NCBI GenBank assembly: GCA_030608005.1
Contig: JAUWIX010000001.1
Span: forward strand, 14,375 to 78,374
Reading direction: 5' to 3'
Source of the DNA: Dehalococcoidia bacterium
Lineage (GTDB): Bacteria; Chloroflexota; Dehalococcoidia; Dehalococcoidales; BS750m-G39
Length of the DNA stretch: 64,000 nucleotides
Shown: positions 3,104 to 64,000 of the stretch, piece after piece
Layout of the letters: every line of letters starts with the position of its first letter
How positions within the stretch are numbered: the stretch's first letter is position 1
Position numbers and translations under genes: made by a program
Notes under the pieces: model-generated
Databases searched by the model: none
Seen by the model: the letters and a program-made list of their open reading frames with translations, nothing else
Told to the model about the DNA's origin: nothing

Positions 3104-4277
3104 ACATTTGCCCCCTTATCTTTTTGTGGAGATTAGTAAGAAGATTGCCGAGAAAAAGGCTAAGGGTGAGGATATAGTTAGCTTTGGTATAGGCGACCCT
3201 GATATTCCCACACCACCTCACATAATTGATAGGCTATGTCAGGCAGCAAAAGACCCGGCTAATCACCGTTATCCTGAGACTGAGGGTCTGCCTGAATTGC
3301 GCCGGGCTATAGCTGGGTGGTATGAAAGGCGCTTTGGTGTTTCCCTTGACGCTGACAAAGAGGTATTACCCCTCATTGGCTCAAAGGAAGGCATTGCCCA
3401 CATTGCCTTGTGCTTTATTGACTACAGGGATATTGCCCTGATACCTGACCCGGCATATCCCGTTTATTCAATAAGCACCATGTTAGCCGGTGGTAACCCT
3501 TACTATCTGCCACTTATTGAAGAGAACGATTTTCTGCCTGATTTAGATGCCATACCTGCTTATGTCCTAAAAAGTGCCAAGTTATTGTGGATAAGCTATC
3601 CTAATAACCCTACCGGCGCAGTGGCTGACCTCGATTTTTTCAACAGGGTAGTGGAATTCGCTCGGCATCACGACCTAGCTGTCTGTCATGATGGACCGTA
3701 TTCAGAGGTCGCCTTTGATGGCTATCAGCCAGTTAGCTTCATGCAGGCAGAAGGGGCTAAGGAAGTAGGGGTGGAGTTTCACTCCCTGTCTAAAACCTAT
3801 AATATGACCGGGTGGCGAATAGGAATGGTGGTGGGTAACGCTGCCATGGTAGATGCTCTAAAGAGGATTAAGTCAAACTTAGATTCAGGAATTCCGCAGG
3901 CTATTCAATGTGCTGCCATTGAGGCTTTGACTGGTTCCCAAGATTGCATCCAGGAGCACAACGCTATTTATCAAAGACGCCGTGATTTGGTCGTTGATGT
4001 GCTAAATAATATCGGTCTTAAAGCCCAGCCTCCGAAGGCAGGTCTATATATATGGGCTAAGATTCCTGAAGGCTATACCTCTGTGGACTTTGCTACCGAT
4101 TTGTTGGAAAGGGTTGGGGTGGTGGTTACTCCAGGGGTAGGCTATGGCAAGCACGGCGAGGGTTATATACGGTTGTCGCTAACTATCCCGGATGCAGGGC
4201 TGGTGAAAGGTTTATCGCGATTGTCAGCCTGGCGTGATACTAGAAGAAGACTAAAACCGGGAATTGACTTTACATAA
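3066..4277 (+). CDS. dapL: LL-diaminopimelate aminotransferase-like class I/II aminotransferase
   Basis: PPYLF...FGIGDPD N-terminus and SLSKTYNMTGWRIG PLP-lysine motif. It sits next to dapF. The true start is probably the ATG at 3081 or 3087 (MKMSRR). Confidence 0.7.
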   Translation: MENGQMKMSRRVEHLPPYLFVEISKKIAEKKAKGEDIVSFGIGDPDIPTPPHIIDRLCQAAKDPANHRYPETEGLPELRRAIAGWYERRFGVSLDADKEVLPLIGSKEGIAHIALCFIDYRDIALIPDPAYPVYSISTMLAGGNPYYLPLIEENDFLPDLDAIPAYVLKSAKLLWISYPNNPTGAVADLDFFNRVVEFARHHDLAVCHDGPYSEVAFDGYQPVSFMQAEGAKEVGVEFHSLSKTYNMTGWRIGMVVGNAAMVDALKRIKSNLDSGIPQAIQCAAIEALTGSQDCIQEHNAIYQRRRDLVVDVLNNIGLKAQPPKAGLYIWAKIPEGYTSVDFATDLLERVGVVVTPGVGYGKHGEGYIRLSLTIPDAGLVKGLSRLSAWRDTRRRLKPGIDFT

Positions 4278-4382
4278 CGATAAGGGGGCATTATTACTAG
4301 AGGAACAATCGTTACCCAGGTATCGCCAGAACGAGCATTCTTAGTAGCTGTAGCCACCAGAGGAGGTACCGATAGCTGGTCA

Positions 4383-5453
4383 GTGGAGGATTCGATAGAT
4401 GAGCTGGCTCAGTTAGCAGGCACGGCTGGGGCAGAGGTGGTTGGGAAACTCATACAGCGATTACCCAGAGCATCAAGAACACACTATTTGGGCAGAGGCA
4501 AACTGACAGAACTACTGTTGCTAAAGGATAGCACCAAGTATAATGTAGCGATTTTTGACGACGAGCTTTCGCCACTTCAGCAGCGAAATCTAGAGGAAGC
4601 CCTTCAGGTAAAGGTGATTGACCGGGTAGCCTTGATTTTGGATATTTTTACCAAGCGGGCTAGAACCCGTGAGGGTCAATTGCAGGTAGAGCTGGCTCAG
4701 CATCAATACCTTTTCCCTCGTCTTGCCGGACAGTGGAGTCATCTGGAAAGGCTTGGCGGTGGCATTGGCACCAGAGGTCCCGGTGAAACCCAGCTTGAGA
4801 CTGATAAGCGCCTTATTCGGCGCAGGATACATCGTCTGAAGGCACAGATTGACGACATAAGAAAGCATCGTCAGCTATATCGTCAACAGCGCAGGAAAAC
4901 CGGTATCCCTATAGTTGCCATTGTGGGTTATACTAATTCTGGCAAAAGCACCTTACTGAATGCTCTCAGTCATGCCGATGTCTTTGTCGAGGACAAGCTG
5001 TTTGCCACTTTGGACCCAATCACCAGGCGGTTAACCCTTCCTGATAGAAGTGCGGTCTTATTAACCGATACTGTTGGCTTTATCAGGAAGTTACCGCCCA
5101 CCATTGTAACTGCATTTAAAGCAACCCTTGAGGAGTTAGCCGAAGCCAGTGTGCTCCTCCATGTGGTTGACTTAACTTGTCATAACGCTGCAGAACAGTG
5201 CCAAATAGTAGAGGATATTCTTGCTGACCTCAACCTCATGGACAAGCCTCGGATTACGGCGCTAAATAAGATTGATTCGTTACTGGATGATAGCCAGAGT
5301 TGGAGTGAGGAGACAGCCCTAAATTATGTTTCTGACCAGAGTGAAGCAGTTGAAAAGAATACTGTACTAATTTCAGCCACCAAGAAGTGGGGACTAACTA
5401 AACTCCTGGAGCTAATCAGCCGGACGCTAAGCCCCACAATGCAGCCGGTCTAA
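4383..5453 (+). CDS. hflX: GTPase HflX (the real start is probably upstream of the first canonical start codon)
   Basis: HflX motifs are present: LILDIFTKRARTREGQLQVELAQ, GPGETQLE, and G1 GYTNSGKST followed by DTVGF. The conserved N-terminal domain continues in frame upstream to 4284. Confidence 0.9.
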   Translation: MEDSIDELAQLAGTAGAEVVGKLIQRLPRASRTHYLGRGKLTELLLLKDSTKYNVAIFDDELSPLQQRNLEEALQVKVIDRVALILDIFTKRARTREGQLQVELAQHQYLFPRLAGQWSHLERLGGGIGTRGPGETQLETDKRLIRRRIHRLKAQIDDIRKHRQLYRQQRRKTGIPIVAIVGYTNSGKSTLLNALSHADVFVEDKLFATLDPITRRLTLPDRSAVLLTDTVGFIRKLPPTIVTAFKATLEELAEASVLLHVVDLTCHNAAEQCQIVEDILADLNLMDKPRITALNKIDSLLDDSQSWSEETALNYVSDQSEAVEKNTVLISATKKWGLTKLLELISRTLSPTMQPV

Positions 5454-5573
5454 AGAGACGCTCTCAAATCAAAATCTAGGGGCATAAAAATTCTTCTGAA
5501 TGGTTCTATTACCTTTATAAGCGATAAGAGACAATTAGCCCCATATTTTTGCCCTTGGTTTTTTTATTTTTAA

Positions 5574-5662
5574 GGGAACCCACCCCCTTAATCCCCCTCC
5601 CTTGATAAGGGAGGGGGAGAGTTTTTTAAGAAGAGGGGGCTAGCGCCCCCTCTTAAACACCC
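5574..5662. repeat. intergenic repeat (reverse tail + hairpin B, followed by a palindromic hairpin A module)
   Basis: The reverse tail ggaacccacccccttaat is followed by ccccctccc-ttgataa-gggaggggg. After that comes aagaggggg-ctagc-gccccctctt plus aaacaccc. Confidence 0.8.
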
Positions 5663-5710
5663 GGTTGGCATAGGCAGGTTATAATTTAACATAACACTCT
5701 GTGATTTAAG

Positions 5711-6373
5711 TTGCTTCTTGTTTCTTGGAGCAAGCATAGATATAATGTTGCTATGATACTTGAATGGCTTACTAAGCATCGGCGCTGGGTTATAACAGGC
5801 TGCGTTATTATTCTTATTTTCACAATACTTGTCGAGGTCTTTAGGTCATATTTTTGGGCTAGCTCCATTCTTGACTACTTCCAGCATTGGTCGCTAGCTC
5901 TTAGTGCTGGGGCAACGCTTGCTCTCGCTTATATAGCCTATATTTCGATTTTAGAGAATCGTCGTATACGAGAAGAAGAGAGAGAAAGGGCTATCAAAAC
6001 AAGAGCATTAGCGATAGTCCGCAATTGGGTATTTGACTCGCTGGAATTAATCACACTAAATGCACAGTATACGGATGAGCATCGAAGAGAGGAATTTGAT
6101 TTCGGAAGGCATATTTTATATAAAATTCAGGACGCTAAAACGGAGCTATTAAGGAAAACGGAAGAGGTACTTCATTCAGCGACATTGTTTGGGCCCCAGT
6201 TCTTTTCTTTAGTTGATGAAGGCTTTAACACACTTAAAGGGTTCATCGAGCAAGGGATGGCTGAAAACCCCAATATAACTGAACAATACAAGAAGAGCTT
6301 TGGGTTGCTGTTCGCGAACATTCTTAAGGCGATCAGGGAAACTGAGGACAGCGAACTAAACCTTAGAACCTAA
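5711..6373 (+). CDS. hypothetical membrane-anchored protein in an AT-rich island
   Basis: 220-aa ORF with two hydrophobic N-terminal segments and then a charged helical region. I recognise no family. The start is uncertain (TTG 5711 or ATG 5753). Confidence 0.45.
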   Translation: MLLVSWSKHRYNVAMILEWLTKHRRWVITGCVIILIFTILVEVFRSYFWASSILDYFQHWSLALSAGATLALAYIAYISILENRRIREEERERAIKTRALAIVRNWVFDSLELITLNAQYTDEHRREEFDFGRHILYKIQDAKTELLRKTEEVLHSATLFGPQFFSLVDEGFNTLKGFIEQGMAENPNITEQYKKSFGLLFANILKAIRETEDSELNLRT

Positions 6374-41155: not shown

Positions 41156-41797
41156 TTACCAAATAACCAAGATGTCCATTATGGTATCGTCATATGAAGG
41201 TTTCTCATAGTAATAACCCGGTTTAGGCTCTAAACACTTGTACCAGCGTTTACCTATGACAGGTGTGGCTCTCATATCTGTTTGCGACTCAAAGAATAAT
41301 AACCCTTCATCAATGGTATCGAAGGCTATTATTGAATGCCCACCTTCCCCAAAGCGCAGCTCAACAAAAGCGCATCGTAAGCCTTCTTCTTCAGCATTAT
41401 TACACGCATCCCTAGCGAAGTGGCTACATACATAAGTATCCTCAACATATTTATTCCTGTCTGTCCTATCCTTTCTCAAGAAGGTAACTGCCTCTTTATA
41501 AGTCGGGTCTCTTAATGTATAACCATGTCCTAAGCCAACCTCCACACCTTCCGCATATCCGTCCTCATAGCCATCGGCTTCGCCCAGGTCATAACCTTCT
41601 CCTTTGCCTGTAGCGTAGCCTTCATCATAGCCATCCTGTTGCCCCAAGCTATAGCCTATCTTTTGGCCTGCAGAATAGCCTTTATCATATCCTTCTGCTT
41701 CGCCTATACCATAGGCAATATTATAAACAATAAACCCACTAAGGCATACTACACCCAATATACCTATAGCTATAAAAATTTGTTTTGTCCATTTCAT
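41156..41797 (-). CDS. membrane-anchored protein with GY-x2-GY repeat region and a Cys/His C-terminal domain
   Basis: One N-terminal TM is followed by about 12 tandem G-Y-[DE]-x-G-[YL] units (EGYDKGYSAGQKIGYSLGQQDGYDEGYATGKGEGYDLGEADGYEDGYAEG). A globular C-terminal part with YVCSHFA...GGHSIIAF follows. Confidence 0.55.
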   Translation of the reverse strand: MKWTKQIFIAIGILGVVCLSGFIVYNIAYGIGEAEGYDKGYSAGQKIGYSLGQQDGYDEGYATGKGEGYDLGEADGYEDGYAEGVEVGLGHGYTLRDPTYKEAVTFLRKDRTDRNKYVEDTYVCSHFARDACNNAEEEGLRCAFVELRFGEGGHSIIAFDTIDEGLLFFESQTDMRATPVIGKRWYKCLEPKPGYYYEKPSYDDTIMDILVIW

Positions 41798-46664: not shown

Positions 46665-47518
46665 ATGAACGAACTAAACATATCAGAGAAAATTCCAAAA
46701 CAGATTAGAAAGTGGACCTGCCACAAGCTTGAGTGCTTTGCTGACTATATTGAAGCCTATACCAGAACGCTGGACAATAATAAGTGTTGCTACCTGGAGC
46801 TATATGCCGGATGTGGCAACTGTATCTGTAAAGGCACCGACTGTGTTATTGAAGACTCAGCACTTCGGGCATTAAGAACCAAAACTAAATTTGATAAGTA
46901 TATGTTTGTGGTAACAGACCACCAAAACGCTAGAAGCCTGAAGCGACTATCAACCCCACACGATACTGCCAATACTGTAGAAATAATAACTGGTAACTGC
47001 ATTAATGAGAAGGTTATCCAGCAGGTATTTGACCTTATTCCCCGCTCAGCATCTAGCCTTGCCCTCATTGACCCCCCGGGATATAGGAAGCTACGCTGGT
47101 CAACAATCAAAAAGCTAGCTGCCCACGGGAAGGACTGGAAAGGCCATAAAATGGAGCTACTCATAATCTTCCCTCTAGAAATGGCTCTCCTGCGGAATTT
47201 AACCCGCCCAGAGTGCGAAGCCTCAATAACCAGGCTCTATGGAAACCGCAAATGGCAGGAGATTAAACAAAACAAATTGGTGGGCAAAATAGGGCTAGGC
47301 AAAGCTAGACAGCGGCTGGCGGAGTTATATAAAGCTGGTCTTAAAGGTTTGGGCTATAGACACATCACCGATTTTAAACCCAGCCGCTTCTCCAAACCTC
47401 CCGTTTACCACATAATTTTAGCCAGTGATAGCGATAGCAGAGCCAAAATCCTGGAGGAGGCTTGGGGCAAGGAGAGATACCTACCCTGCGAGCTACTCTA
47501 CAGCAGGAAAGATAGACC

Positions 47519-47522
<4 letters not shown>
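46665..47522 (+). CDS. TcmP-like protein (three-Cys-motif partner protein family, tentative)
   Basis: 285 aa. WT.HKLE.F..YIEAY...L......YLELYAGCG, later IDPPGY....W.TI..LA, and ELLIIFP match the TcmP family as I remember it. The gene is more AT-rich than eno. Confidence 0.45.
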
Positions 47523-49554
<2,032 letters not shown>

Positions 49555-49571
49555 CAGTACTATAGTAGGAA

Positions 49572-49601
49572 TTGACATTCTGGCATAACCGTGCTTAAAA
49601 T
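49572..49601 (+). promoter_or_regulatory. sigma70-type promoter of the first tubulin-like gene
   Basis: TTGACA (49572-49577), a 17/18-nt spacer, then TGcTTAAAAT (extended -10). The sequence is almost identical to the one in front of the second gene. Confidence 0.6.
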
Positions 49602-49631
49602 AAGACAATATTTTTAACAGCGAGGTGGATG

Positions 49632-50807
49632 ATGAAGCTAGTAGTAATAGGTTTTGGTCAGTGTGGGTGCAACATTGCTGATGAATTTTATGCCATTAAC
49701 AACCATGCTAAATCAATTTTTAATCGTAAGATTGAGATCTTAACCGATGCTTTTGCCATTAACACCGATGAGGCGGACTTAGGTGGTTTTAGGCATATTC
49801 CTAAGGATAGACACCATAGGATTGTGATTGGCGGTGTGAGAACCTTCGGGCATGGAGTTGGCAAAATGAATGTCGATGGTGCCAAGATTATTAAAGAAAG
49901 TTACACGGTTATCACTGATAATATTTTGGAGTCAAGAAAATTTCATGAGACCGATGGAGTTCTAGCCATAGCCAGTGGAAGCGGGGGCACCGGGTCTGGA
50001 GCAATTGGTTGGGCAATAAAGAAACTTAAGGAGAGGATAGAGAAACCAGTTTACGCCGCAGTAGTTCTCCCCTTTGGATATGAAGAAAACGGGGTTACTT
50101 CCTATGCAATAACCAACACTGCCACCTGTCTCAAGACAGTAAACCAATATGCTGATGCTGTGTTCTTGCTTGATAATGAACGGTTTGCCAGAAGGGGCTA
50201 CAGCTTCGCCCGAAATCTGCACCAAATAAATCTCGAATTCGTCAACAATTTCTATGACCTTTTCTGCGCCGGGGAGGAGAGAAGACCGCAATACCTAGGA
50301 AGCAAAGTGATAGATGCAGGAGATATTAAACAGACACTTGAAGGCATTTCCTCCATTGGCAGGGGGCAGATTGACCTTGCCACCTTTTATCGCTGGAGTA
50401 AGGAGCATTTTCGGGAAGAAGCAAGGGAAAGTAGCGCAGTAGCTGGAGCCTTAGATAAAGCCATGAATAACCTGTCTGTGTCAATTGACTTAAAGGATGC
50501 CAGGAAGATTCTGGTTCTACTCACTGCTCAGAAAGGGGTTATTACCCTGAATGCCTTGGAAGAGGTCGCTACTCTGTTACAAGAGAGGGCTCCTAGAGCT
50601 GTAATAAGAATGGGTGATTATCCTAGAAGGGGAAAGGAGATCTCTCTAACTTTAGTTGCTTCCAGCTTAGCCAAAGTGGTCAGGGTAGAGAATCTATATC
50701 TTCAAGCTAAAGATTTATTTAAACAGCAGGCGAAGCTAAATAGAGAAACCCAAGAGCAAATTCAACAGTTGCATCAGACTGGCAAGGAGCTTCCCAGCTT
50801 GGATTAA
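49632..50807 (+). CDS. tubulin/FtsZ-superfamily GTPase, CetZ/tubulin-like, paralog 1
   Basis: T1 GFGQCG, GHGVG, T4 SGGTGSG, LPFGYEE, LLDNERF, T7-like VIDAGDIKQTL, and RMGDYPRRG. The helical tail ends in KELPSLD. I chose the ATG at 49632 by alignment with paralog 2 (GAGGTG-N4-ATGAAG). The ORF track starts at 49629. Confidence 0.85.
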   Translation: MKLVVIGFGQCGCNIADEFYAINNHAKSIFNRKIEILTDAFAINTDEADLGGFRHIPKDRHHRIVIGGVRTFGHGVGKMNVDGAKIIKESYTVITDNILESRKFHETDGVLAIASGSGGTGSGAIGWAIKKLKERIEKPVYAAVVLPFGYEENGVTSYAITNTATCLKTVNQYADAVFLLDNERFARRGYSFARNLHQINLEFVNNFYDLFCAGEERRPQYLGSKVIDAGDIKQTLEGISSIGRGQIDLATFYRWSKEHFREEARESSAVAGALDKAMNNLSVSIDLKDARKILVLLTAQKGVITLNALEEVATLLQERAPRAVIRMGDYPRRGKEISLTLVASSLAKVVRVENLYLQAKDLFKQQAKLNRETQEQIQQLHQTGKELPSLD

Positions 50808-50812
50808 ATATG

Positions 50813-50842
50813 TTGACATTGCTAAAGAACTATGCTTAAAAT
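50813..50842 (+). promoter_or_regulatory. sigma70-type promoter of the second tubulin-like gene
   Basis: TTGACA (50813-50818), a spacer, then TGcTTAAAAT. It is followed by the conserved ATTTTTAA and the GAGGTG Shine-Dalgarno. Confidence 0.6.
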
Positions 50843-50873
50843 AACAACAACATTTTTAATATTGAGGTGAAAA

Positions 50874-52049
50874 ATGAAGTTAGTGGTTGTGGGTCTTGGA
50901 CAATGCGGCGACAGGATTGCTGATGAGTTTGCCCGACTAAATAGAAGGGCACGTAGTCAGCGCGGGGTTGAGATAATTACCGGTGCCTTCGCTGTAAACA
51001 CTGATGCCGCTGACTTAAGTGGGCTACAAACTATAAAAGCTGATTACCAGCATAGAATCCTCATCGGAACTCGAAGGACCGGGGGCCATGGTGTAGGTAA
51101 AATAAATGAGCTGGGGGCTGAAATAGCCAAAGAGGACAGCGATAAGATTATAGATGCCATAAGAACAGCCCAGCGCTTCTTTGAGACCGATGCCTTCTTA
51201 TTGGTCGCCGGTGCTGCCGGCGGCACTGGCTCAGGGGGAATACCGATAGTTGCCCAGATGATAAGGGAGCGCTATGTGTCTAAGCCAATCTATGCCCTGA
51301 CTATTCTCCCCTTCGCTCATGAAGAGGAAACTGAGGAAAGAACTGTTTATAATTCAGCCACTTGCCTTAAGTCCCTCTATCCAGAGGTCGATGCCGTCTT
51401 TCTGGCTGACAATCAAAGGTATATCGGCAAGGACTTCTCGCTTACAAATAACCTATCTAAGATCAATACCTTAATAGTTGACTCATTCTACAACTTGCTC
51501 TGCGCTGGTGAAGAGACAAAACGCAAGCATATTGGGGCAAGGACGGTTGATGCCGGAGACATAATACAGACTTTGGTAGGCTGGACAGTAATAGGCTATG
51601 GCAAATCACCATTGCCTATCTTCAGGTGGTTTCCCTTCTTCGGAAGAAACTTCATAAAGAAGAGTATTGAAACTCACCGAGGAATCCGGGCCATGGATGA
51701 AGCCATAAGTGAGCTGTCAGCTAAATGCATTCCTTCGGATTCAGGTAGAGCCCTATACCTCGTCTCGGCACCACCTAGAGACATGAATATGGACCTGGTT
51801 AAGGACCTGGGAAATTATCTGAAAGATATAGCTCCAGAGGCAGTGATAAGGAACGGCGATTATCCCAGGCAAAAGAGCTTGATTGATGTAACCCTAATTC
51901 TGTCTGAGCTTAATATTGTGGATAAGGTAAAGGGGTACTATAACAAGGCAAGCGGCGTTGTTCACGAGCTTAAAGGAAGGCGAGACGAGTTCGAGCGCAA
52001 ACTTAGAGAAATAGAGGAGGCATCAAAGGACCTACCCTCATTAATATAA
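50874..52049 (+). CDS. tubulin/FtsZ-superfamily GTPase, CetZ/tubulin-like, paralog 2
   Basis: T1 GLGQCG, GHGVG, T4 AGGTGSG, LPFAHEE, LADNQRY, T7-like TVDAGDIIQTL, and RNGDYPRQK. The helical tail ends in KDLPSLI. Confidence 0.85.
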   Translation: MKLVVVGLGQCGDRIADEFARLNRRARSQRGVEIITGAFAVNTDAADLSGLQTIKADYQHRILIGTRRTGGHGVGKINELGAEIAKEDSDKIIDAIRTAQRFFETDAFLLVAGAAGGTGSGGIPIVAQMIRERYVSKPIYALTILPFAHEEETEERTVYNSATCLKSLYPEVDAVFLADNQRYIGKDFSLTNNLSKINTLIVDSFYNLLCAGEETKRKHIGARTVDAGDIIQTLVGWTVIGYGKSPLPIFRWFPFFGRNFIKKSIETHRGIRAMDEAISELSAKCIPSDSGRALYLVSAPPRDMNMDLVKDLGNYLKDIAPEAVIRNGDYPRQKSLIDVTLILSELNIVDKVKGYYNKASGVVHELKGRRDEFERKLREIEEASKDLPSLI

Positions 52050-52072
52050 ACAGGCTATCCAAGCCCATTTTG

Positions 52073-52133
52073 CCAGCTTTACTAGTTAAGGCAGAGCCAA
52101 AGAGTGATTCAGACTAGTAAAGCTGGTTTTTTT
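52073..52133 (+). terminator. rho-independent terminator after the tubulin-like pair
   Basis: Perfect 14-bp stem CCAGCTTTACTAGT (52073-52086) / ACTAGTAAAGCTGG (52113-52126), followed by T7 (52127-52133). Confidence 0.8.
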
Positions 52134-52220
52134 ATTTAATAACCAGGAAATTCAGTCTTATATGCTCAGAAACCCCCTTTGGAAACCAGATAATATGGGG
52201 TATAATAAAAGCAAACGAAA

Positions 52221-63204: not shown

Positions 63205-63296
63205 GGAGGGGTGTCCGAGTGGTTTAAGGAGACGGTCCTGAAAACCGTTGCTCCGATATACCGGAGCCGTGGGTTCGAATCCCACCCCCTCCGCCA
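63205..63296 (+). tRNA. tRNA-Ser (anticodon TGA), type II with long variable arm, CCA encoded
   Basis: Acceptor GGAGGGG/CCCCTCC, anticodon arm ACGGT-CCTGAAA-ACCGT, variable stem GCTCCG/CGGAGC, T arm GTGGG-TTCGAAT-CCCAC, then G-CCA. Position 33 reads C rather than the usual T. Confidence 0.85.
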
Positions 63297-64000
63297 CTAT
63301 TCTTGAGTATCTGTCCGTATTTAATCAAACCGGCTAAACCAGTTATTGCCCTCTCGGGAAGGGGAAAGGTGGGAATACGGCTCCCCTCAAGTGCATTTAT
63401 CTCGGCATAAGCTAAGCCTTTAGGCGAGTCCAAACACACCGCTATTGGCTTTCCGAGGTCTCTAGCCGTGTCAGCAACATCAACCACAGCCCTCATCACC
63501 TCCATATTTGACCCATAGAAGACAGCGGCTACAGCTACTGCATCAACGCCACCATCGTCTAAAACAACCTTCAGCATCTCCTGGCAAGCATCAAACTCAT
63601 TTGATTTCCAGGCTAGGTCAACGGGGTTATCCACAGCATTAAGTGGCGATGACAATTGCCTGAGCCTGCGCTTTGTAACTGGTGAAAGTTGAGTCAGCCT
63701 CAAGCCTAATTGCCGACATTTGTCAGCCATAATTATTCCCGGGCCAGCCTGAACCGAGAAAATAGCCACCCTATTACCCATCGCCACTGGCTGGAAGGCT
63801 AGTGCCTTAGCTACATCAACCAATTCTGTCAGACCATCAACCACAATCATTCCCGCCTGCTTGAAAGCGGCTTTATAGAACTCGTATTTGCCAGCCAAGG
63901 CACCAGTGTGGGATAAGGTAGCCCTGTCCATCTCCTCACCCCTACCCGCCTTATACACCACGATTGGCTTTCGCTTTGTCACCTGCCTGGCAACATTGGT
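63224..64000 (-). CDS. ADP-forming acetyl/acyl-CoA synthetase-family protein, C-terminal part (5' end outside the window)
   Basis: PIVVYKAGRGE....A.SHTGALAG and later domain motifs match NDP-forming acyl-CoA synthetases. The frame is open to the window end. Its last ~24 codons run antisense through tRNA-Ser. Confidence 0.75.
   Translation of the reverse strand, partial: TNVARQVTKRKPIVVYKAGRGEEMDRATLSHTGALAGKYEFYKAAFKQAGMIVVDGLTELVDVAKALAFQPVAMGNRVAIFSVQAGPGIIMADKCRQLGLRLTQLSPVTKRRLRQLSSPLNAVDNPVDLAWKSNEFDACQEMLKVVLDDGGVDAVAVAAVFYGSNMEVMRAVVDVADTARDLGKPIAVCLDSPKGLAYAEINALEGSRIPTFPLPERAITGLAGLIKYGQILKNSGGGGGIRTHGSGISEQRFSGPSP

Follow-up and report, generated by a model that had tools for sequence, protein, structure and literature searches.

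CetZ proteins of the tubulin/FtsZ superfamily of GTPases have been called specific to archaea in reviews and research papers (PMC9856176, PMC11621097). Archaeal members pair a Tubulin domain with a CetZ_C domain, share the motifs GHGVG and R-x-GD[YF]P together with a DN-type T6 loop and a D-x-x-[DE] T7 loop, and, after a long C-terminal helix, close with a short conserved tail of hydrophobic character; several specialised paralogues occur per genome, in hosts that possess an S-layer and lack peptidoglycan. In Haloferax volcanii, the LESLF tail of CetZ1 and the hydrophobic tip of its M-loop are each needed for rod development (bioRxiv 10.1101/2024.04.08.588506). CetZ-like sequences of Chloroflexota-Dehalococcoidia have been mentioned in a single sentence, as 'sparse paraphyletic groups', by Santana-Molina et al. 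(2023; PMC9871819), whose CetZ C-terminal hidden Markov model (HMM) matched Dehalococcoidia sequences at ~1e-10. The current study concerns two genes, designated A and B, in a 64-kb stretch of DNA (hereafter the window) from a bacterium of the order Dehalococcoidales. Their products are CetZ-type GTPases of the tubulin/FtsZ superfamily, not FtsZ-type proteins, and very probably belong to the same group as the sequences mentioned by those authors.

The proteins encoded by A and B exceed the Pfam gathering cut-offs of both domains. Tubulin (PF00091; cut-off 33) was matched by A with 90.1 bits (E 2.9e-25) and by B with 119.2 bits (E 3.5e-34), and CetZ_C (PF21011; cut-off 21.6) was matched over nearly the whole profile by A with 60.4 bits (E 2.1e-16) and by B with 49.8 bits (E 3.6e-13). 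Four further profiles stayed below threshold: the NCBIfam FtsZ equivalog TIGR00065 scored 42.5 bits for A and 67.7 bits for B against a cut-off of 295.2, and over the N-terminal half only; FtsZ_C (PF12327) scored 12.4 bits for A, against a cut-off of 27, and did not match B; Tubulin_2 (PF13809) scored 16.2 (A) and 24.2 (B) bits over a partial region, against 27; and the tubulin C-terminal domain (PF03953) was matched by neither protein in the Pfam search. A sequence search of the PDB returned as best matches CetZ1 (4b46) and CetZ2 (4b45) of H. volcanii and CetZ of Methanosaeta thermophila (3zid), at 1e-24 to 1e-44, with CetZ1 at 9.4e-44 for B and 1.4e-35 for A. With B the best FtsZ entry stood at ~1e-10, with A at ~5e-3; tubulins and BtubA/B gave ~1e-4 to 1e-6, tubulins reaching only ~1e-3 with A, and TubZ gave a weak match to A (E 0.005).

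Structure prediction is in agreement with this assignment. The AlphaFold2 models of B (predicted local distance difference test, pLDDT, 86.4; predicted template modelling score, pTM, 0.86) and of A (pLDDT 80.3, pTM 0.83) both show a C-terminal helix of ~35 residues (~350-385) followed by a short free tail. In a Foldseek search with the B model, 4b46, 4b45 and 3zid occupied ranks 1-4 (four chains; E 3e-34 to 8e-24, target TM 0.79-0.93), while every FtsZ structure ranked behind the CetZ entries, at ~1e-22. Identity of the pair to CetZ1 and CetZ2 amounts to 27-33%, as against 20-23% to the FtsZ of their own lineage. An earlier note, made from the sequence of the window alone, had proposed a CetZ rather than an FtsZ affiliation, and this is borne out by the CetZ_C domain, by the CetZ entries at the head of the PDB matches and by TIGR00065 scores far below the cut-off. 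The same note had placed two adjacent same-strand open reading frames (ORFs) of about 391 codons exactly where A and B lie (Table 1). Its estimate that they are one third to 40% identical is close to the 41% found by BLASTP across 394 columns (E 6e-95), and every loop motif that it had quoted is present in the translations (A/B): GQCG, SGGTGSG/AGGTGSG, LPFGYEE/LPFAHEE, LLDNERF/LADNQRY and VIDAGDIKQTL/TVDAGDIIQTL, besides NTD..ADL, GHGVGK, R-x-GDYPR and a charged helical C-terminus. No other ORF with a tubulin signature was found in the window.

A and B share with archaeal CetZ all of the traits listed at the outset, from the domain pair with its best sequence and fold matches to the S-layered, peptidoglycan-less host, and nevertheless differ from it in several respects. 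Their host is a bacterium, they make up a clade of their own with no more than 33% identity to CetZ1 and CetZ2, and the T1 loop carries an invariant cysteine in place of alanine. The GQCG motif was earlier called tubulin-like, and it is indeed shared with beta/gamma-tubulin, but it is not a trait of archaeal CetZ (CetZ1 and CetZ2 have GQAG); the T1 cysteine is specific to the Dehalococcoidia bacterial clade and to beta/gamma-tubulin. The bacterial tail furthermore contains proline and is FtsZ-peptide-like (DIPSLL versus LESLF of CetZ1), the bacterial type coexists with bacterial FtsA and FtsZ, and its relatives are linked to coiled-coil genes, whereas archaeal cetZ genes are linked to pili, F420 and epimerase genes (PMC9856176). 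With bacterial FtsZ the pair has in common the superfamily fold, the GTPase loops and a T5 loop (PF..EE, compare PFxFEG of FtsZ), and the extreme C-terminal peptide of B resembles the FtsZ peptide that binds FtsA, ZipA and SepF; it differs in failing TIGR00065, in lacking an FtsZ_C domain above cut-off, in having GQCG for GGGGxN in T1, and in its position between gap and dnaX, outside an mraZ-ftsA-ftsZ cluster in the window. Like BtubA/BtubB and alpha/beta-tubulin, A and B are adjacent paralogues with a GQCG T1 loop and the [SAG]GGTGSG signature, but they lack the Tubulin_C domain, match these proteins in the PDB at no better than 1e-4 to 1e-6, and show neither conserved pairing nor catalytic asymmetry.

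Both proteins appear to have an intact active site. Over 59 A-type and B-type sequences, residues G7, G9, Q10, C11, G12, N42, T43, G71-K76, G116-G121, P146, F147, E150, E151, D179, N180, D226 and D229 are invariant, giving the loop patterns G-x-G-Q-C-G, N-T-D, G-H-G-x-G-K, G-G-T-G-S-G, P-F-x-x-E-E and D-N. The acids of the T7 loop (D226/D229 in B, D228/D231 in A) are likewise invariant across the 59 sequences and align with D215/E218 of CetZ1 and D209/D212 of E. coli FtsZ. As the nucleotide loops and the T7 acids are invariant, both A and B look able to bind GTP and to activate its hydrolysis in the adjacent subunit, in keeping with the earlier note, which had seen the full set of GTPase loops in both. 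The first position of the T4 loop is variable by type: it is alanine in all 22 sampled B-types and glycine in 33 of 37 A-types, while A of the window has Ser117 (codon 49980-49982), unique among the 37. The PROSITE tubulin signature permits S, A or G at this position, which corresponds to that of the E. coli FtsZ84 change (G105S), a glycine-to-serine substitution that impairs the protein. CetZ1-G108S, altered at the same T4 position, is non-functional (bioRxiv 10.1101/2024.04.08.588506). Of note, two independent assemblies (L001 and L002; L numbers denote loci of relatives) carry a sequence identical to A of the window, including Ser117.

The C-terminal tail is highly conserved within each type. 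All 120 B-type sequences end in K-D-[IL]-P-[ST]-L-L-COOH, 114 of 119 A-types end in [K/D/R]-[N/E]-L-P-[T/S]-L-[D/E], and the FtsZ of the lineage carries the C-terminal peptide L-D-V-P-S-F-L-R-R-P in ~100% of 120 sequences. The spacing I/V-P-x-F/L-L is that used by FtsZ to bind FtsA, ZipA and SepF, as in the complexes FtsA-FtsZ of T. maritima and ZipA-FtsZ of E. coli. The B tail resembles the D-V-P-S-F-L peptide of the lineage's FtsZ and may thus be a candidate ligand of FtsA. The M-loop also differs between the types, being aromatic and basic in B-types (LP.F[KR].F.F.RNF.KK), and shorter and charged in A-types.

To establish the distribution of this family, a species-level reference collection of genomes was surveyed; relatives turned up in at least 525 of its genomes, and the loci of the best 80 were examined. 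Essentially all of these 80 belong to the Dehalococcoidales or Dehalococcoidia, and B-type identity across them is 63-82%, a conservation across species that implies function. B matched more than 6000 protein clusters (the best 120 at 73-100% identity), those with names including 'tubulin/FtsZ family protein [Dehalococcoidia/Dehalococcoidales]', 'Tubulin-like protein CetZ [subsurface metagenome]' and 'cell division protein FtsZ'; A belongs to a family of its own, 58-100% identical among the matches listed. A search for cultured strains by way of cluster names returned only labels from metagenome-assembled genomes (MAGs), namely 'tubulin/FtsZ family protein', 'cell division protein FtsZ' and 'cell division GTPase FtsZ'. 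A tree built by a distance method only (neighbour-joining, Kimura-type distances, 100 bootstraps) separates CetZ-like proteins, A and B included, from FtsZ in 100/100 replicates, and recovers the A clade in 100/100 and the B core in 73/100. A Dehalococcoidia-type clade of A, B, B' and 22 representatives received 85/100; a group containing CetZ1, CetZ2 and 'tubulin/FtsZ family protein [Nitrososphaerales archaeon]' proteins stands apart as its sister (50/100), and placement of A or B inside the canonical euryarchaeal CetZ clade was not seen in this tree. The split between A and B is old, as the earlier note had surmised: the two fall in separate clades, and A-types that are only 60% identical still adjoin gap in the same locus. 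These sequence comparisons point to a bacterial CetZ-like branch that is large, conserved and specific to the Dehalococcoidia.

Two observations accompany this survey. A C-type paralogue of 371 residues (L083:9252-10367; also L129, L131, L157, L158 and L163) adjoins A-type genes; it has the Tubulin and CetZ_C domains, lacks the LP-x-L tail, and groups with the Nitrososphaerales archaeon proteins in the neighbour-joining tree, which may point to a separate exchange with archaea. In addition, two MAGs titled 'Deltaproteobacteria bacterium' (L004 and L005; JAUVYB01 and JAUWGI01) carry the Dehalococcoidales-type arrangement hgd-gap-A-B-dnaX or B-dnaX at 75-83% identity, and are probably mislabelled or contaminated bins.

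In the window, A and B lie in the order ligA, pth, eno, HGD-D-like gene, gap, A, B, dnaX, ybaB, recR, recO, lysS, serS. The earlier note had described these flanks as typical bacterial housekeeping genes, and the flanking genes, together with the source names of homologues, indeed identify the host as a bacterium of the Dehalococcoidales. The position of B between gap and dnaX is kept in about 80 genomes of the survey. All A-types at least 76% identical to A reside in the arrangement hgd-gap-A-B-dnaX (more than 30 metagenome contigs, besides L001-L004 and L015), and the A-B pair is therefore real, non-chimeric and stable in its clade; a chimeric contig, which the earlier note had named as a possible objection, is contradicted by the recurrence of this gene order in independent assemblies as well as MAGs. 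A-types of 60-65% identity are often found in a larger island, gap-A-B'-[two opposite-strand genes]-B-dnaX (L128, L133, L136, L141, L145, L156), and many genomes have gap-B'-[same two opposite-strand genes]-B-dnaX without A. The two intervening genes encode coiled-coil-like, Ala/Glu-rich repeat proteins of ~175-185 and 460-730 residues, for which a Pfam scan returned sub-threshold noise only; such a gene pair lies between paralogues in ~30 loci of the survey, and its products are possible partners of the cytoskeleton. Other arrangements comprise gap-B-dnaX alone, gap-A-A'-dnaX, A adjoining the C-type, A alone, and A divergent from mraZ-mraW-ftsA. A adjoins B in only 4 of the 80 loci surveyed, most of which hold B alone or B with a B-like copy. 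Since A is missing from two loci (L012, L013) whose flanks are 85-93% identical to those of the window, it is dispensable in close relatives.

The relation of this family to canonical FtsZ was resolved from loci of relatives. In one of them (L021) the CetZ-like gene directly follows an mraZ-mraW-ftsA-ftsZ cluster (Table 1) whose FtsZ is canonical: it shows GGGTGTG, carries FtsZ_C and shares 44% identity with its E. coli counterpart. Abundant homologues match this FtsZ at 81-93% identity, the named ones being from Dehalococcoidia, Dehalococcoidales and Chloroflexota, and the canonical FtsZ proteins of the lineage have Tubulin and FtsZ_C domains. The order mraZ-mraW-ftsA-ftsZ is also found in L086-L088, and the genome CAYHAL01 has both this cluster (L086) and gap-B-dnaX (L018). 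It has previously been reported that ftsZ and ftsA are present in Dehalococcoidales and SAR202 (PMC10608941, PMC11994032). FtsZ and FtsA are thus retained in the order, and A and B are additional to FtsZ and not a replacement for it. The claim of the earlier note that neighbours from the division and cell wall (dcw) cluster are absent holds for the window, where ftsA, mraZ, mraW, canonical ftsZ and coiled-coil genes were sought and none was found, but not for relatives, in which a paralogue follows mraZ-mraW-ftsA-ftsZ (L021) or an A-type gene lies divergent from mraZ-mraW-ftsA with no ftsZ after ftsA (L085, L147). The first of the latter two loci had prompted the idea that the Dehalococcoidales are devoid of canonical FtsZ and that their published 'ftsZ' is the CetZ-like gene; this idea was discarded given the succession of ftsA, canonical ftsZ and a cetZ-like gene in L021 and the abundance of canonical FtsZ in the lineage.

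Both genes are preceded by putative expression signals (Table 1). The upstream regions of A (49555-49631) and B (50808-50873) align, with the same -35 element, TG-n-TAAAAT, A/T-rich leader and GAGGTG, and are paralogous; of 107 CetZ-like genes in related loci, 85 have the same promoter architecture upstream. The promoter-like and Shine-Dalgarno sites of each gene, the hairpin after B and the separate promoter-like site of dnaX suggest that A and B are expressed independently, and probably strongly. The ORF list offers two starts for A, at 49629 (392 residues) and 49632 (391 residues), of which the ATG at 49632 is likelier because its 4-nt spacer after GAGGTG is identical to that of B and because homologues begin MK[LI]. 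It was also observed that the paralogous upstream regions form repeats flanking A, and recombination between them could delete A cleanly, which would fit the relatives with gap-B-dnaX and no remnant of A.

The interpretation that we favour, with a probability of about 0.6, is that A and B provide an additional, membrane-proximal CetZ-type cytoskeleton that works alongside FtsZ and FtsA and has a role in cell shape or in the envelope. Each gene would be transcribed from its own strong sigma-70-type promoter, and the products would bind GTP through loops T1-T6 and, by analogy with CetZ1, FtsZ and tubulin, assemble into head-to-tail polymers in which the T7 acids of one subunit complete the site of the next. 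The filaments would lie close to the membrane beside FtsZ-FtsA and shape or organise the envelope of peptidoglycan-less, S-layered cells, being attached through the flexible extreme C-terminal peptide at the end of the ~35-residue helix, to which the aromatic and basic M-loop of B-types may add. Candidate receptors for the tail would be FtsA, whose natural ligand is the FtsZ peptide D-V-P-S-F-L, or the coiled-coil proteins of relatives' loci. Given the systematic difference in tail and M-loop, A and B may be read as specialised paralogues comparable to CetZ1 and CetZ2, with A an accessory and not an obligate partner of B. This interpretation is backed by the links to division genes in L021, L085 and L147 and to coiled-coil genes in ~30 loci. 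In D. mccartyi BTF08, the normal disc-shaped cells are rich in FtsZ (btf_0595), in a distinct 'FtsZ/Tubulin GTPase' (btf_0551) and in the nearby hypothetical protein btf_0548, all of which are reduced in the barrel-shaped cells of co-cultures (PMC8163811); this would lend circumstantial support to a role in shape, provided that btf_0551 and btf_0548 are counterparts of genes of the A/B locus.

Several points weigh against this interpretation. The retention of FtsZ and FtsA is established for the order, from loci of relatives, and not for the MAG of the window itself, and the coiled-coil-like genes of relatives are absent from the 64-kb window. By analogy with the mutants described above, the alanine (B) or serine (A) at the first T4 position may make GTP turnover slow. 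As to docking, the B tail is also similar to archaeal CetZ tails (some of them D-I-[DE]-x-L-[LF], besides LESLF of CetZ1) and stops two residues past Pro-x, where FtsZ peptides go on as a helix, and the tails of A-types, with their acidic last residue, are a poor fit to the FtsZ consensus. The tail motif may therefore not be a ligand of FtsA but an inherited one for self-association or for another partner, dating back to the ancestor of the superfamily instead of being an adaptation of bacteria.

An obligate heteropolymer of A and B in the manner of alpha/beta-tubulin or BtubA/BtubB, as the earlier note had suggested, is quite unlikely. The two genes are adjacent on the same strand and separated by an old split, more than 30 contigs with an A 76-96% identical to that of the window keep gap-A-B-dnaX, and the systematic differences in M-loop and tail could mean complementary roles; however, A is missing from most B loci, including the two with flanks 85-93% identical to those of the window, A-types also occur alone, beside the C-type or beside mraZ, each gene has its own promoter-like site, no Tubulin_C domain was matched, and the two T7 acids and complete nucleotide loops are retained in A and B alike, leaving no catalytic asymmetry. 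That A, B or both are division-ring proteins anchored by FtsA, replacing FtsZ, is improbable. Such a role would accord with the database name 'cell division protein FtsZ', the FtsZ-like C-terminal peptide, the A-type genes beside mraZ-mraW-ftsA in L085 and L147, and the absence of peptidoglycan, by which FtsZ-guided wall synthesis is not needed (PMC10608941), but it is opposed by the abundance and 81-93% conservation of canonical FtsZ in Dehalococcoidia, by the mraZ-mraW-ftsA-ftsZ clusters of L021 and L086-L088, including genomes that also encode B, by the reports of both genes in Dehalococcoidales and SAR202 cited above, and by D. mccartyi, which expresses FtsZ plus a separate tubulin-like GTPase (PMC8163811).

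It is very improbable that the pair was recently gained from archaea by horizontal transfer, or is a chimera of the assembly, and plays no integrated part in its host. The nearest characterised relatives are archaeal, some intermediate representatives come from Nitrososphaerales, and A is mildly AT-rich, with a GC content of 0.438 (z = -1.7, 7th percentile among equal-sized windows). The AT-richness that the earlier note had attributed to the pair, and from which it had argued for horizontal origin, thus applies mildly to A but not to B (0.469, z = -0.5, unremarkable); this weak deviation is outweighed by order-wide synteny, which argues for vertical descent within the Dehalococcoidales. Identical gene order is found in independent assemblies and MAGs (L001, L002, L003, L004, L015, L089-L121), the Dehalococcoidia-type clade is monophyletic apart from the archaeal-type group, promoters and Shine-Dalgarno sites are of host type, and identity to CetZ1 and CetZ2 is 33% at most, with no nesting in an archaeal genus seen; any inter-domain transfer would be ancient. 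Scarcely credible is a DNA-segregation filament of the TubZ/PhuZ kind from an integrated mobile element: membership of the tubulin superfamily and the weak TubZ match of A speak for it, but the neighbourhood consists of chromosomal housekeeping genes and is kept throughout the order, tubR-like genes, centromere-like repeats and genes of phages or plasmids are all absent near A/B, and the CetZ matches are more than 30 orders of magnitude stronger. A more far-reaching form of the favoured cytoskeletal interpretation, unlikely in our estimation, would have the order, whose cells lost peptidoglycan and bear an S-layer of archaeal style, possess a second, archaeal CetZ-type cytoskeleton of 1-4 specialised paralogues and dedicated coiled-coil proteins encoded in the gap-dnaX island, docking on FtsA by mimicry of the FtsZ peptide, setting the disc shape of the cells, and acquired from or shared with archaea at roughly the time of wall loss. 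Were this to hold, Bacteria would have their first CetZ-type shape system, in which cytoskeletal modules of archaea and of bacteria are naturally combined.

The existence of the group is already known, as it is mentioned in PMC9871819 and its domain is recognised by Pfam and NCBI annotation, and the pair in the window is a new member of it; the novelty asserted in the earlier note was to that extent overstated. Compared with that paper, which is without order-wide synteny, a paralogue island, a tail motif, promoters or a relation to FtsZ/FtsA, the group proves abundant here, with at least 525 species genomes, and the neighbour-joining tree shows it as monophyletic. In the literature searched, no description was found of its breadth, of the gap-dnaX paralogue island with coiled-coil genes, of the FtsZ-like tail, of the promoter architecture or of explicit coexistence with FtsZ and FtsA. 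A large and strongly conserved bacterial CetZ branch with several paralogues per genome is surprising in view of the 'archaea-only' position of the literature; while not a new kind of system, it opens a testable question, and it resides in an order of environmental and biotechnological importance that includes organohalide respirers and abundant subsurface Dehalococcoidia. As the hosts lack peptidoglycan and have S-layers, the role of CetZ filaments and the setting of shape without a wall become testable in a second domain of life, in a natural case of CetZ-type and FtsZ/FtsA-type systems together. Furthermore, many family members are annotated in databases as 'cell division protein FtsZ' or 'cell division GTPase FtsZ', which is a misannotation: these CetZ-like proteins will be taken for FtsZ wherever a survey applies TIGR00065 or COG0206 with no trusted cut-off, and division-gene surveys run with relaxed HMM thresholds can be misled.

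Table 1. Coordinates of genes A and B, of their putative expression signals and of selected features in loci of relatives (positions refer to the window unless preceded by a locus number).
Feature	Position	Strand	Details
Gene A, 391-residue CetZ-like GTPase, A-type paralogue	49632..50807	+	tail ...GKELPSLD
Gene B, 391-residue CetZ-like GTPase, B-type, order-wide syntenic paralogue	50874..52049	+	tail ...SKDLPSLI
Promoter-like site of A	49572..49601	+	TTGACA, 18 nt, TAAAAT; TG two bases 5' of -10; 11/12 consensus
Shine-Dalgarno GAGGTG of A	49622..49627	+	4 nt before ATG 49632
Promoter-like site of B	50813..50842	+	TTGACA, 18 nt, TAAAAT; 11/12 consensus; conserved in B orthologues
Shine-Dalgarno GAGGTG of B	50864..50869	+	motif and spacing identical to A
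Terminator-like hairpin downstream of B	52072..52135	+	16-bp stem, then U-run; -29.8 kcal/mol, z = -4.7 versus shuffles
Promoter-like site of dnaX	52179-52206		
mraZ-mraW-ftsA-ftsZ-CetZ-like-nrdR	L021:1811-7176		ftsZ canonical; CetZ-like gene directly downstream of it
Coiled-coil-like genes	L030:2992-3516, 3576-5759	-	between two CetZ-like paralogues
Coiled-coil-like genes	L057:3744-4295, 4409-5803	-	between two CetZ-like paralogues

A number of features elsewhere in the window were also recorded. Rfam and tRNA scans of the window returned three tRNAs only, none of them close to A/B. A tRNA-Ser(TGA) at 63205-63296 (+) overlaps by ~70 nt the 3' end of an ORF at 63224-63982 (-) with Succ_CoA_lig and Ligase_CoA_2 domains; the mechanical call may have missed the real stop or start of this ORF. 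A Cys-rich ORF of 285 residues without a Pfam family lies between eno and the HGD-D-like gene (46665-47522, +), and its end shares 4 nt with the start of the next gene. An ORF of 213 residues at 41156-41797 (-), with a GC content of 0.42, shows G-Y-x-x-G-Y/[DE]-x-G repeats after a hydrophobic segment at its N-terminus, and its sole match is a weak one to Yae1_N, below cut-off. Finally, genes from ~7 to 34 kb lie on the minus strand and those from ~34.9 kb on the plus strand, and the sign of the GC skew flips at ~34.2 kb, which looks like a switch of the replication-origin type.

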